A DNA stretch of 32,000 bases. It comes from an uncultured Clostridia bacterium (GTDB lineage: Bacteria > Bacillota > Clostridia > Christensenellales > JAWKQI01). The stretch is taken from positions 20,294 through 52,293 of the forward strand of contig CAYVRJ010000011.1 in NCBI GenBank assembly GCA_964453645.1, read 5' to 3'. The notes under the pieces were generated by a model. That model ran no database searches. It was given only the letters and a program-made list of their open reading frames with translations, and was not told where the DNA came from. This document shows positions 11,278 to 24,940 of this stretch, one piece after another; position 1 is the first letter of the stretch, and each line of letters begins with the position of its first letter. A program made the position numbers and the translations under genes.

Positions 11278-12903
11278 TTATTCGTTCTTCATTTTAAACT
11301 CTGCGAGATGCTGGTAAATCGCTTTCGCTGTGTTGAGTGTTAAAATTTTGTCTTTCAGTTCAGCAGCATCTATTGTATTGATACAGCGAATGGCCTTTTT
11401 CATTTGCAGTAACTTGGAAGGGGTGACGCTGAATTTGCGTATACCCGCACCAATCAAGAAGGGTAACACCAAAGCATCGGAGGCAGCTTCTCCACACACG
11501 CTCACGTCTTTTCCGTTTTTATTGGCAGCTTGCGTAATGGAAACAATGAGCCGGAGTACTGAGGGCTGATAGATGGAATACAACTCTGCTAAGTCGCCGT
11601 TGCCCCTGTCCGCAGCCATGGTGTATTGAATGAGATCGTTGGTGCCAATGGACAAAAAATCCACAATCTTGCACAAATCATCCGCCATCACCGCAGCAGC
11701 AGGGGTTTCCACCATAACACCCAATGAGAAACTTGCCCCTGTGCGCTTCATCATCTCCCGAACTCTCTCAATTTCCTCCACAGTGCTCACCATGGGCACC
11801 ATGACTTTGAGGTTACCCTCAACCCCAGCAAATGCCCTTAGTTGGTTTTCCAACACCTCTGGGTTTTTCAGGCACAGCCGAACGCCCCGCACTCCCAAAT
11901 ACGGGTTTTCCTCCCGGCTCTGGGGCAGATATGGGATGACTTTGTCCGCTCCCGCATCCAACGTTCGAATGGTCACTTCCCGATCGCCAAAGATTTGGGT
12001 CAATTTCGAATAAATATTTCTTTGTTCCTCCACTCCGGGTAAATCTTTTCTGTCTAAAAAAATAAACTCCGAGCGGAACAACCCCACCCCCAAGCTCTCG
12101 CAACGGGCTTCCTCGCCGATCTCCTGCAAGCTTCCCAAGTTGCACAAAAGTTTTATATCCACCCCATCGGCAGTTTTGGGGGCTACTCCCCTGTATTTTT
12201 CCAAAAGAGACAGTTCTGCTTCATCGTTTCTCTTTTGTTCTTCCAAGGTTTTTAAGTCGGTTTTGTTTAAGTCATAGAACACTTGCCCAGTCTTTCCGTT
12301 TACAACAACGGTCTCTCCCTCCGGAATATCCCCCATGCCCAACACGCCAATGACACAGGGTATATTGAGGGAACGGGCTAATATACAGGCGTGGGAGGTT
12401 TCCCCTCCCCCCTCCATGGCTAGCCCTTGAATGGTCTCTTTGTTCTCCAGTATTTGAGATGGAAAGATTTCCTGGCCAATTAAAATGCCCTGGAGTTTCC
12501 TCTCCCCTCCGCCTTCCATAAGGTCAAACAGTTGGTTTTCAATATCTTCAATATCCGAAGCTCTGGCCGCAAAGTATTCGTCCTGCATATTTTTAAAGGC
12601 AGATGCCAACTCCCCTGCCACGCTGTGCAGGGCATACCCGGCGTTTACCCCCTCGGTTTTGATTTTTTGCACCACTGCATCACAAAACTCCGGGCTTTTT
12701 AACATAAACAGCTGTGCGGTGGCAATATCCGAACCCTTGGCCGAAAGTTCCCCCGAGAGTGTAACGGCAGCTTGGGTAAAGACGTTTACCTCCAACTCCA
12801 CGTGGCTGACCATGGATTTTTCAATGGTATAAGCCGTTGTGCAACGACTTGCAGTCCCAATGGCGATGCCGGGGTGCACCCCTTTGCCGGATAGTACTTT
12901 CAT
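11278..12903 (-). CDS. ptsI: PTS Enzyme I (phosphoenolpyruvate-protein phosphotransferase), operon-embedded paralogue
   Basis: Active-site His motif GGGETSHACILARSLNIPCV. PEP-utiliser barrel motifs GLFRSEFIFL, IRTLDAGADK, NPYLGVRGVRL, MVETPAAA, SIGTNDLIQYT and VCGEAASD. I prefer ATG at 12903 (MKVLSGKGVHPGIAIG, GGAG 6 nt upstream) over the track ATG at 12915. Confidence 0.9.
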   Translation of the reverse strand: MKVLSGKGVHPGIAIGTASRCTTAYTIEKSMVSHVELEVNVFTQAAVTLSGELSAKGSDIATAQLFMLKSPEFCDAVVQKIKTEGVNAGYALHSVAGELASAFKNMQDEYFAARASDIEDIENQLFDLMEGGGERKLQGILIGQEIFPSQILENKETIQGLAMEGGGETSHACILARSLNIPCVIGVLGMGDIPEGETVVVNGKTGQVFYDLNKTDLKTLEEQKRNDEAELSLLEKYRGVAPKTADGVDIKLLCNLGSLQEIGEEARCESLGVGLFRSEFIFLDRKDLPGVEEQRNIYSKLTQIFGDREVTIRTLDAGADKVIPYLPQSREENPYLGVRGVRLCLKNPEVLENQLRAFAGVEGNLKVMVPMVSTVEEIERVREMMKRTGASFSLGVMVETPAAAVMADDLCKIVDFLSIGTNDLIQYTMAADRGNGDLAELYSIYQPSVLRLIVSITQAANKNGKDVSVCGEAASDALVLPFLIGAGIRKFSVTPSKLLQMKKAIRCINTIDAAELKDKILTLNTAKAIYQHLAEFKMKNE

Positions 12904-13018
12904 GTAACACTCCATTCTGTCGTTTCATTTATGATATAAATAATCATTAAAGAATCTTTCATGTAAAGCTCCATTCTGTCGCTTCATTTATGATATAAAT
13001 AGTCATTAATGGGTCTTT
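12901..13018. repeat. Tandem direct duplication, 2 x 59 bp, of the Enzyme I translation-initiation region
   Basis: Unit 1 is 12901-12959 and unit 2 is 12960-13018. They align without gaps, with 52/59 identities counted by eye. Each unit carries GGAG-N6-ATG. Confidence 0.9.
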
Positions 13019-13278
13019 CACAAAAAAATACCCTGAAGGGCTGCGGTAAGCTCTTTTGCTGCCTGTTCCTCGTCACTTCCTTCGATGTTTATTAAAACAG
13101 TGCCGTTTCCCTTGATGCCCAGCATCATAATGGAAATGGCAGATTTTGCGTTGCCCGTCTTTTCCCCTGCAACAATAGACATCTCCGAACTGTATTTGCT
13201 CAGCAGCTCCACAAGGTTTGCCGCCGGTCGGGCGTGCAGCCCCGATGGATCTTGAATGTTAAATTCGATTGTTTTCAT
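13018..13278 (-). CDS. ptsH: HPr-family phosphocarrier protein
   Basis: 86-aa ORF with the His-15 motif SGLHARPAANLV and the Ser-46-region motif GNAKSAISIMMLG. AAGAGGTGA RBS. Confidence 0.9.
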   Translation of the reverse strand: MKTIEFNIQDPSGLHARPAANLVELLSKYSSEMSIVAGEKTGNAKSAISIMMLGIKGNGTVLINIEGSDEEQAAKELTAALQGIFL

Positions 13279-13289
13279 AATTCACCTCT

Positions 13290-23903: not shown

Positions 23904-23918
23904 GTTTTACACCCTCCG

Positions 23919-24839
23919 TTAATATTTGGGCAGCATCTTATCTTCAATAATCTGCCGCTGAATCTCTACTACACGACCTACGTCGATCACTTCGTTTAAG
24001 ATATAGTGCTGATGGAGTTTTTCCTTTAAGCACACGATCACCGCTTCGGTGTCCATTTTCAACATGTCGCTGGGCAAGTTAAGTTCGATGCACTTTAATT
24101 GGGAAAAGCGCTCCTGCGCCTCATCGCCGTTCCAAACGGCCACGTCCACCTCACCCAAATCCAATTTCTTGATCAACTGGTTGTAGGGGCATTTGATAAA
24201 CTCCGCCTGTGCGTCCTTGAGCCACTGCTGGGTCATAAACATTTGGTCGATGGAGTTTGGATCCACCGCCACCCGTATGCCGTCGAAGGGTTCACCCGAG
24301 AAACCGTCTCGCAAAATGATGGCATGGCCGCCAACATAGGAACCCGATCCAAAGCCCATTGCAATCTCCAACCCCTCGTCCCGCTTCATGGCCTCCACAG
24401 CCGCCAAGTGGGAGCAAACCGCAAAATCGTATCTGCCCGCCAGCACGCCGCTAATTCTCGCATCCGATCCCCGCTGATAGGCTAAGTTAAACTCGATATC
24501 CGCACTTTCAAATTCGGTATAGAGGGCTGTTGCCAGCCCCTCGTACCGCTTGGAATAGGGAAGGGGCATTGTGCCAAAAATCGAGGAAAATCCCGCAATG
24601 TTAAACAGCTTTTTCTTGTGAATGTCCGTGATGAAGGTGCCCGTATGCCCTGTGGCTTTTAGGGCAACGCCTCCGTTTTCCTTTAAAAAAGCCAGTGCGT
24701 TTTGAACCGTTCCCCTGCCCACGCCAATGTCCTTGGCAAAGTCCTCGACCCGGGGAATCTTGTCGCCTATCTTCATACTCAAAAACATTCCGGCAATTTG
24801 CTTGACTGCAATGCCGTTGTTTGTTATTAGCTTGCTCAT
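23919..24839 (-). CDS. yhfZ: YhfZ-like DNA-binding regulator (N-terminal GntR-like HTH plus periplasmic-binding-protein-like C-terminal domain)
   Basis: 306 aa. N-terminal IPRVEDFAKDIGVGRGTVQNALAFLKENGGVALKATGHTGTFI is a winged-HTH pattern. Size and position next to the PRD gene are as in E. coli yhfZ-yhfY. Confidence 0.65.
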   Translation of the reverse strand: MSKLITNNGIAVKQIAGMFLSMKIGDKIPRVEDFAKDIGVGRGTVQNALAFLKENGGVALKATGHTGTFITDIHKKKLFNIAGFSSIFGTMPLPYSKRYEGLATALYTEFESADIEFNLAYQRGSDARISGVLAGRYDFAVCSHLAAVEAMKRDEGLEIAMGFGSGSYVGGHAIILRDGFSGEPFDGIRVAVDPNSIDQMFMTQQWLKDAQAEFIKCPYNQLIKKLDLGEVDVAVWNGDEAQERFSQLKCIELNLPSDMLKMDTEAVIVCLKEKLHQHYILNEVIDVGRVVEIQRQIIEDKMLPKY

Positions 24840-24889
24840 ACCGCACCTAAGTTCTTATATATATTTATTTTATCTTTGGAGGTTTTAAC

Positions 24890-24940
24890 AATATACAGTA
24901 AACTGTATATTCATTATATCACGGCCATCGCTTTTGTCAA
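24890..24940 (-). promoter_or_regulatory. Promoter of the yhf-like operon with an abutting 22-bp palindrome (candidate YhfZ operator)
   Basis: Minus strand: TTGACA (24940-24935), 16 nt, extended -10 TGaTATAAT (TATAAT = 24918-24913). One nt downstream lies AATATACAGT-aa-ACTGTATATT (24890-24911), with perfect 10-bp arms covering the expected transcription start. Confidence 0.55.

Follow-up and report, generated by a model that had tools for sequence, protein, structure and literature searches.

The yhfZ-yhfY-yhfX-yhfW-php-yhfU-yhfT-yhfS cluster of Escherichia coli K-12 (b3376–b3383) has been without an assigned function for decades. The literature searched holds no function for yhfS, yhfT, yhfU, yhfX, yhfW, yhfY or yhfZ, for DUF2620 or for php (yhfV), and no pathway for the cluster as a whole, in accord with a first, sequence-only reading of the DNA considered here. 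The PDB entries for YhfS, 4J8L, and for YhfX, 4KBX, still carry the label ‘uncharacterized’, and the Bacillus subtilis genes that bear the same yhf names are unrelated. The subject here is a variant of this cluster in a stretch of 32,000 nucleotides from an uncultured Clostridia bacterium (contig CAYVRJ010000011.1, positions 20,294 to 52,293), the whole of which is referred to as the window. On its minus strand, from 24839 down to 11278, are twelve tightly packed genes in the order YhfZ, YhfY, NCS1, HyuB, HyuA, YhfU, YhfT, YhfS, YhfX, YhfW, HPr and Enzyme I (EI). Seven homologous genes are common to it and the E. coli cluster. In place of php, the window has an NCS1-family permease and the two hydantoinase-type subunits HyuB and HyuA, and HPr and EI of the phosphoenolpyruvate (PEP)-dependent phosphotransferase system (PTS) are added, while the E. 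coli cluster depends on unlinked ptsHI. The gene order is of the Bacillota type, with S-X-W last, unlike that of E. coli.

Other described systems are pertinent. NCS1 and HyuAB by themselves form known hydantoin-type utilisation units, and full-length Hyu domains with an adjoining NCS1 gene are what the window has in common with the ATP-dependent hydantoinases, 5-oxoprolinases and caprolactamases; its HyuAB is, however, set within a cluster of pyridoxal phosphate (PLP) enzymes and a phosphomutase, unlike that of a hydantoin-to-amino-acid pathway. DhaKLM is a soluble catabolic phosphorylation system driven by PEP via EI and HPr, and ATP-dependent kinases are its equivalent in other organisms. 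Salmonella degrades D-glucosaminate via a PTS and a PLP-dependent ammonia-lyase, and PTE-family relatives of Php hydrolyse phosphorylated sugar lactones.

The window among related yhf clusters

With a YhfS profile as query, relatives were found in no fewer than 582 species-level genomes among the species representatives scanned. The best 80 loci, mostly Bacillota and many of them from gut and digester samples, were analysed and have a conserved cluster. Together with 40 metagenomic loci and several contigs from exact-protein look-ups they make up the 125 loci compared here, many of which are clipped by contig ends. The dominant Bacillota architecture is YhfZ-YhfY-YhfU-YhfT-X353-Php-YhfS-YhfX-YhfW, with X353 not always present. 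What is X353? It is a compact protein of about 353 amino acids with the amidase-signature motifs GSSSG and GTDGGGS (e.g., L050:8937-9995, L013:7899-9017 and L037:7808-9049), of which the Pfam Amidase model spans only about 45 residues. It is in 65 of the 125 loci, usually between YhfT and YhfS and mostly between YhfT and Php, and none was found in the E. coli cluster or in the window. It looks like an undescribed subfamily and a ninth core gene of the Bacillota cluster. Php, a metal-dependent hydrolase of the PTE family that is in 99 of the 125, is not universal in yhf clusters either: there is no Php open reading frame (ORF) in the window, nor is there one in six other clusters.

A minimal variant is found in six loci (L002, L005, L006, L008, L128 and L130), consisting of YhfZ, NCS1, HyuB, HyuA, YhfS, YhfX, YhfW and a protein here called U255. 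Gene order differs among the six, and none has YhfY, YhfU, YhfT, Php, X353, HPr or EI. U255, of about 255 amino acids, has the protein-kinase-fold motifs HxD[IV]SxxNLL and DFGIG, a PDB search with its profile gave over 1000 kinase chains, and in five of the six loci it adjoins YhfW; its six copies are 39–57% identical to each other. None was found in the window, where the best tblastn match has an E value of 0.24. It is this minimal variant to which the window is closest in three of its parts (YhfS 52–56%, HyuA/B 65–75% and NCS1 58–60% identity), with the remainder reversed, as the minimal variant has the kinase and is without YhfY/U/T and HPr/EI. The canonical Bacillota cluster, for its part, has the same backbone order and operator motif as the window, and a subset of its representatives has HPr, with or without EI, after YhfW; the window differs from it in being without X353 and Php and in having NCS1-HyuBA inserted between YhfY and YhfU. 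Among all these loci only the window combines NCS1-HyuBA with YhfY/U/T and HPr-EI, without Php, X353 or U255.

Judged by gene content, then, the window is a mosaic of the ordinary and minimal forms, and possibly an evolutionary intermediate between both. The system itself is one already known, though orphan; what is new is this mosaic form of it. The earlier view of it as a rebuilt version of the yhf cluster has been sharpened by the neighbourhood comparison, since each addition recurs elsewhere (HPr, alone or accompanied by EI, within or next to 10 other clusters, NCS1-HyuBA in the six) and the combination alone is unique. The identity of the genes and the modular logic of their exchange are, in our estimation, very probably right. 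HyuB and Php never co-occur among the 125 loci. L115 was considered as an instance of Php with Hyu and rejected: at 31% and 25% identity its NCS1 and HyuA are distant, and as they are found 2 kb past the cluster they were treated as a neighbouring unit.

Two of the loci are oddities in their own right. In L084, a metagenome-assembled genome of Allofournierella, the order is YhfZ-HPr-EI-YhfX-YhfW-YhfU-YhfS-YhfT, and next come two ORFs, 636 and 544 amino acids long (12540–16068), that occupy the place expected for Php or HyuAB; neither has a sequence match in Pfam, NCBIfam or the PDB. L009 (OZ026535.1, 458508–479602) is a canonical yhf cluster, with a YhfS 48% identical to that of the window, on a 1.38-Mb chromosome labelled ‘Rickettsiales endosymbiont of Ecdyonurus torrentis’, which is unexpected, and the label may be wrong.

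Probable operon control and predicted catabolic genes

That the twelve genes are read as one had been proposed from the letters of the window, and the particulars of that proposal hold. All twelve ORFs, and an Imm5-like ORF that trails them, are on the minus strand at the coordinates first given for them, and with ATG starts at 23492 for NCS1, 14492 for YhfW and 12903 for EI, the spacings of 15, 48, 88, -4, 2, 1, 21, -10, -11, 11, 114 and 25 nucleotides are exactly reproduced. The start of hyuA overlaps the hyuB stop by 4 nucleotides, there are 2 nucleotides between the end of hyuA and yhfU, and a single one separates yhfU from yhfT. A Shine-Dalgarno-like sequence is 5′ of every gene of the cluster, and base composition, both overall (GC) and at third codon positions (GC3), is even throughout.

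The single strong promoter and operator posited upstream of yhfZ proved to be a perfect promoter of the sigma-70 type together with a palindrome. The promoter (24913–24940, minus strand) comprises TTGACA, a 16-nucleotide spacer and TG-n-TATAAT, i.e., 12 of 12 consensus positions with an extended -10. Directly after its -10 box, and abutting it, is the 22-nucleotide palindrome AATATACAGTTTACTGTATATT (24890–24911, minus strand), the core of which, RTACA-N6-TGTAY at 24893–24908, occurs just once in the window. In 34 of 82 related loci this box, defined as a cluster criterion in the present study, lies no more than 250 nucleotides 5′ of yhfZ, where about 0.017 would be expected per 250 nucleotides, and it is present in Php-type and Hyu-type clusters alike. 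YhfZ itself (23919–24839; 306 amino acids) has a GntR-type HTH_41 domain and a YhfZ_C domain (Pfam E 2.9e-69), exceeds the equivalog cutoff of the NCBIfam YhfZ_full model (346.9 bits against 260) and is 29% identical to E. coli YhfZ. We infer that YhfZ has the palindrome as its operator and, by obstructing the promoter, keeps the operon repressed. An Rfam scan of the whole window gave no riboswitch and no RAT-like element.

Is there any site within the cluster where transcription would be expected to cease? Terminator-like patterns number 21, compared with 19.6 ± 4.7 in shuffled sequences, a frequency expected by chance, and every one of them is inside coding sequence. As spacings range from -11 to +114 nucleotides, the promoter is perfect, the operator is the only one and no intergenic terminator is met before 9712–9694, the region would be one transcription unit, and on balance we lean towards its being a YhfZ-repressed catabolic operon and a mosaic variant of the orphan yhf cluster.

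The family assignments made at the outset are supported by profile searches of Pfam and NCBIfam, with YhfY alone giving a weak match; DUF2620, YhfT, YhfS-like_C, YhfX-like_C, Hydantoinase A and B, NCS1, HPr and the three EI domains are all over their Pfam cutoffs. Identity to the seven E. coli Yhf proteins is 25–46%. The NCS1-family permease (22200–23492, like all the genes of the cluster on the minus strand; 430 amino acids from its ATG) scores 64.4 bits with Pfam Transp_cyt_pur, for which the cutoff is 23.5; the nearest NCBIfam model is that of cytosine permease, at 199.8 bits under a cutoff of 326. HyuB (20384–22111; 575 amino acids) matches Hydantoinase_B/oxoprolinase over its full length (Pfam E 2.6e-165) and is 72–75% identical to its counterparts in the minimal variant. 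HyuA (18360–20387; 675 amino acids) has three Pfam domains, Hydant_A_N, Hydantoinase_A and Hydant_A_C, and these too are of full length. Its closest solved relatives are N-methylhydantoinase (7HK5) and 5-oxoprolinase (6YRA), and the caprolactamase CapA/CapB models give 527 bits (HyuA with the alpha model) and 283 bits with the Hyu proteins of the window, not reaching their cutoff of 1000.

Of the two PLP enzymes, the YhfS-like one (15621–16742; 373 amino acids) is of fold type I, with a YhfS-like_C match at E 2.9e-30, 46% identity to E. coli YhfS and a match to 4J8L at E 1e-92. The YhfX-like one (14482–15630; 382 amino acids) is of fold type III, the alanine-racemase fold, has the YhfX-like_C and Ala_racemase_N domains and matches 4KBX at E 2e-72. 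The YhfW-like phosphomutase (13290–14492; 400 amino acids from its ATG) belongs to the alkaline-phosphatase superfamily (Pfam Metalloenzyme) and scores 417.5 bits with NCBIfam PRK12383 against a cutoff of 254.

A possible pathway and its source of phosphate

What might such a set of proteins accomplish? A nitrogen-containing cyclic amide or an amino-sugar-like compound would enter via NCS1, and possibly also via YhfT. The ring or amide bond would then be opened by ATP-dependent HyuA/HyuB, the job which in ordinary clusters would fall to X353 and Php. Since HyuAB stands where X353 and Php would be and no locus has it together with Php, it most likely replaces the X353 amidase and the Php hydrolase. 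That a phosphorylated intermediate follows we infer from the presence of the phosphomutase and from the dedicated kinase of the minimal form, usually beside the mutase; in the minimal NCS1/HyuAB clusters U255 would be the enzyme that phosphorylates it. YhfW would move the phosphate, and YhfX, with its racemase fold, and YhfS, with its gamma-lyase/aminotransferase fold, would process the amino-bearing carbon and feed the product into central metabolism.

The substrate would be an amino-sugar acid, a glycated amino acid or a lactam-type compound, judging by the presence of the PTS, of NagB and an RpiB-like protein, of a pentomutase-like mutase and of two PLP enzymes that would act at an amino carbon, and by chemistry of the amidase, lactamase and lactonase kinds. 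Relevant to the last steps, a true glucosamine-6-phosphate deaminase (NagB, above the TIGR00502 cutoff) is encoded in 13 loci, its gene following YhfW in L013, L037, L038, L087 and others, with HPr next in L013 and L037; such neighbours hint at an amino-sugar 6-phosphate as the end of the pathway. A PfkB kinase is in nine loci and a beta-lactamase-family hydrolase in 12. The phosphorylated substrate of lactam or amino-sugar type that had been suggested from the window fits the kinase of the minimal variant, NagB in the 13 loci and X353 in the 65; as to the compound itself, the suggestion is unproven.

From where, then, would the phosphate come in the window? The cluster ends with two genes for PTS proteins. 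HPr (13018–13278; 86 amino acids) has the His15 motif GLHARPA and a Ser46-like KS (Pfam PTS-HPr E 1.9e-24; TIGR01003 90 bits against a cutoff of 47.9). EI (11278–12903; 541 amino acids) has the active-site histidine motif TSHA, a CGE motif and three Pfam PEP-utiliser domains, so that the N-terminal, His and PEP-binding domains are all present (TIGR01417 447 bits against 341.7). The odd gap of 114 nucleotides between them is due to a tandem duplication (12897–13020, minus strand; 59 nucleotides, 2.1 copies, 89% match) that stretches from the HPr stop to the EI start and repeats the EI ribosome-binding site and ATG; its first copy opens an ORF of 12 codons (MKDSLMIIYIIN). Among the 10 other clusters with HPr, with or without EI, the position is immediately after YhfW in five, and YhfU/T are demonstrable in nine. 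Seven EIs from other clusters are only 29–51% identical to each other and represent at least five distant lineages. As placement directly after YhfW recurs in independent lineages, the adjacency of HPr-EI is not a matter of chance.

The proteins to which HPr might pass a phosphate are less easily placed. YhfY (23541–23903; 120 amino acids) is a divergent single-PRD protein, with a PRD score of 17.1 bits (E 0.0068) that is below the cutoff of 23, though relatives from the same position in other clusters score 30–64 bits (E down to 2e-17); it is 25% identical to E. coli YhfY over 64 amino acids (E 2e-4). Its position directly after yhfZ is conserved across loci. In an alignment of 61 members, the first conserved histidine is retained as His52. 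The second, a histidine in 90% of the family, is Tyr114 in the window.

YhfU (18010–18357; 115 amino acids; DUF2620, Pfam E 7e-36) has the invariant motif G-A-C51-H-T53-G-G-G, the loop in the family at large being G-x-C-x-[TS]-G-x-G with C51 and T53 invariant. It models with an RpiB/LacAB-like fold: the AlphaFold2 model has a pLDDT of 95.9, and its top Foldseek matches are all RpiB/LacAB (TM 0.73–0.79, probability 1.0). C51 and T53 line up with the catalytic residues Cys66 and Thr68 of RpiB. YhfU was also considered as a PTS EIIB and that was rejected, as the first 50 Foldseek matches include not a single EIIB: after RpiB/LacAB come flavodoxins and unrelated folds of other types. Beside the shared fold and Cys-x-Thr-Gly-x-Gly loop there are differences. 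At 115 amino acids to the 149 of RpiB, YhfU is some 30 residues shorter and would be without the C-terminal phosphate-binding helix; identity to RpiB/LacAB is only 11–18%, and a comparison meant to cover the rest of the RpiB active site, His99 and the C-terminal Arg cluster, gave no detectable similarity in sequence (hmmsearch E 0.04, against one sequence). Moreover, unlike those isomerases, it is always partnered with a membrane protein and sometimes fused to a PRD.

That membrane protein, YhfT (16764–18008; 414 amino acids, TTG start), is polytopic and matches Pfam YhfT at E 4.3e-51; its AlphaFold2 model has a pLDDT of 81. An identity as a known EIIC, or as another solved transporter fold, was entertained and is unsupported by fold, PDB sequence and Pfam searches, and PDB sequence searches with YhfU, YhfY and YhfT gave no match. 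YhfU and YhfT are invariably together (74 of 74 loci), and no locus has YhfY without the pair. The DUF2620 family is small, with 170 representatives among 1.84 billion proteins. It includes a natural full-length DUF2620-PRD fusion of 267 amino acids (P0307) from a high-GC organism and a natural full-length PTE/Php-DUF2620 fusion of 413 amino acids (P0270), which may be a read-through of the neighbouring php and yhfU genes of an enterobacterium.

In the window the phosphate could be relayed from PEP to EI, to HPr and then to YhfY, at His52, and/or to the Cys51 loop of YhfU, acting with YhfT, in the manner of a PTS-dependent dihydroxyacetone kinase or of a new kind of Enzyme II. We put forward tentatively, as something that may well be so without being probable, that EI, HPr and YhfY and/or YhfU replace the kinase as phosphoryl source, because the window trades the kinase of the minimal form for YhfY/U/T and HPr-EI while keeping NCS1/HyuAB, and because over 90% of ordinary clusters encode no kinase and do have YhfY/U/T, with EI/HPr in the cluster or elsewhere. 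The linkage of YhfU and YhfT, the dependence of YhfY on them, the DUF2620-PRD fusion and the invariant YhfU cysteine in a glycine-rich loop lend it support. The likeness to DhaKLM is a functional one only, there being no DhaK, DhaL or DhaM homologues in the window, and, unlike in DhaKLM, the proposed carriers are a PRD protein and an RpiB-fold protein, phosphorylation of either of which is predicted only. The bolder version, in which YhfY, YhfU and YhfT constitute an unrecognised PEP-dependent module for phosphorylation or transport, whether a new Enzyme II or a DhaM-like relay, and the operon, with EI and HPr of its own, is a self-contained PTS acting on a non-classical substrate of the ring-opened amide or amino-sugar type in place of the kinase of the minimal clusters, we consider doubtful.

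Several points tell against a relay of this type and have to be set beside those just given. The swap argument is built on only six minimal loci and one window. The model of YhfU resembles RpiB/LacAB isomerases and not a PTS EIIB, and the isomerase-type C-x-T/S motif has been kept. For YhfT, comparison of the model with the PDB gave no significant fold match (best E 0.35, TM at most 0.2), and in none of 28 family members was there a Pfam match to an EIIC at E values up to 10; nor did any ORF have an EIIA or EIIB match in Pfam or NCBIfam. Moreover, the YhfY, YhfU and YhfT of the window are the most divergent members seen: YhfY is without the second histidine, YhfU is without the family-conserved C70, S74, T99 and H102, and no relative shares more than 34% identity with YhfT. 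Finally, all PRD domains studied to date are, to our knowledge, regulatory.

This last point is the starting place for the main rival, which keeps the same operon and catabolic core and confines the PTS to regulation. EI and HPr would phosphorylate YhfY, and YhfY together with YhfU/T would report carbon status or transporter activity to YhfZ, as a split version of PRD/EIIB regulators such as MtlR. YhfU would be a sensor or an ordinary RpiB-type isomerase, and phosphate would come from a kinase encoded elsewhere or from a substrate already phosphorylated. It is a possibility to be taken seriously, even if one we would not call probable. The invariable place of YhfY right after yhfZ is in its favour, as are the isomerase-like fold and C-x-T motif of YhfU and the dissimilarity of YhfT to EIIC, and the DUF2620-PRD fusion has its parallel in the order of PRD and EIIB domains in regulators of the MtlR/LicR type. 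It leaves YhfW with no phosphate source in the window, however, though the closest relatives all carry a dedicated kinase, and if YhfU is a pathway enzyme, it is unexplained why the minimal clusters have all lost it along with YhfY and YhfT.

The remaining two alternatives are unlikely. In the first, YhfY/U/T would be what is left of an ancestral transport module, its selection relaxed and its genes drifting since NCS1-HyuBA took over, with HPr and EI the organism's general PTS genes and neighbours by chance. The unusual divergence of the three proteins, with several family-conserved residues lost, and the scar left by the duplication at the HPr-EI junction are what would be expected of a relic, but the ORFs of YhfY, YhfU and YhfT are intact and each has a ribosome-binding site, the Cys51-His-Thr loop and His52 have been retained, HPr-EI is right after YhfW in independent lineages and no kinase has come in place of the module; the chances of its being correct seem small. 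Smaller still are those of an NCS1-HyuBA hydantoin or lactam cassette having been inserted by chance in a yhf cluster with which it has no common substrate, as, despite the free-standing units of this type and the distant NCS1/HyuA pair 2 kb past the complete Php-type cluster of L115, six independent loci hold NCS1-HyuBA inside YhfZ/S/X/W clusters, in several orders and always without Php, and in the window hyuA and yhfU are barely separated, there is no compositional sign (GC, GC3) of recent insertion and there is one promoter and operator only.

Neighbouring genes and wider relevance

The operon may extend further than its twelve genes. Following EI by 25 nucleotides is the Imm5-like ORF (10725–11252, minus strand; 175 amino acids; Pfam Imm5_like E 1.1e-39), which is probably co-transcribed with the operon. 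It is in none of the 80 related loci searched, is not part of the yhf system elsewhere, and no toxin gene is near this ‘immunity’ ORF. An ORF of 293 amino acids with a Pfam FMN_bind domain (9742–10623, minus strand) comes next, with no terminator between the two, and is possibly the last gene of the transcript. As the first intergenic hairpin with a T-run downstream of EI, a likely terminator, is at 9712–9694 on the minus strand, the transcript may cover fourteen genes, the Imm5-like and FMN_bind ORFs included.

On either side are other units of the same strand. Directly upstream is a BMP-family ABC transporter (ABC_sub_bind, BPD_transp_2 and ABC_tran; 25024–27803), and this operon closes with its own hairpin and T-run at about 24990–24955. 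Downstream, behind a second perfect promoter (TTGACA-17-TATAAT, 9664–9636), a separate operon at 4178–9664 encodes a GntR/FCD regulator, a sugar-type ABC binding protein, two permeases and a PLP enzyme of Cys/Met metabolism.

To return to the mosaic operon and its proposed relay, what does the finding offer? The window is in effect a natural swap experiment that joins two forms of the cluster and shows which genes share a job. The hypotheses it permits are that HyuAB is equivalent to the amidase plus Php, that YhfY/U/T with EI/HPr is equivalent to the permease-plus-kinase arrangement, that there is a phosphorylated intermediate and that YhfZ binds RTACA-N6-TGTAY. If true, the PEP relay would add to the PTS a family of components not recognised before and give PRD domains a function new to them. 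Even if the relay is wrong, the substrate can be sought in a narrower field, that of cyclic amides, lactones and amino-sugar acids leading to products resembling glucosamine 6-phosphate, and the promoter with its operator can be used for reporter screens.

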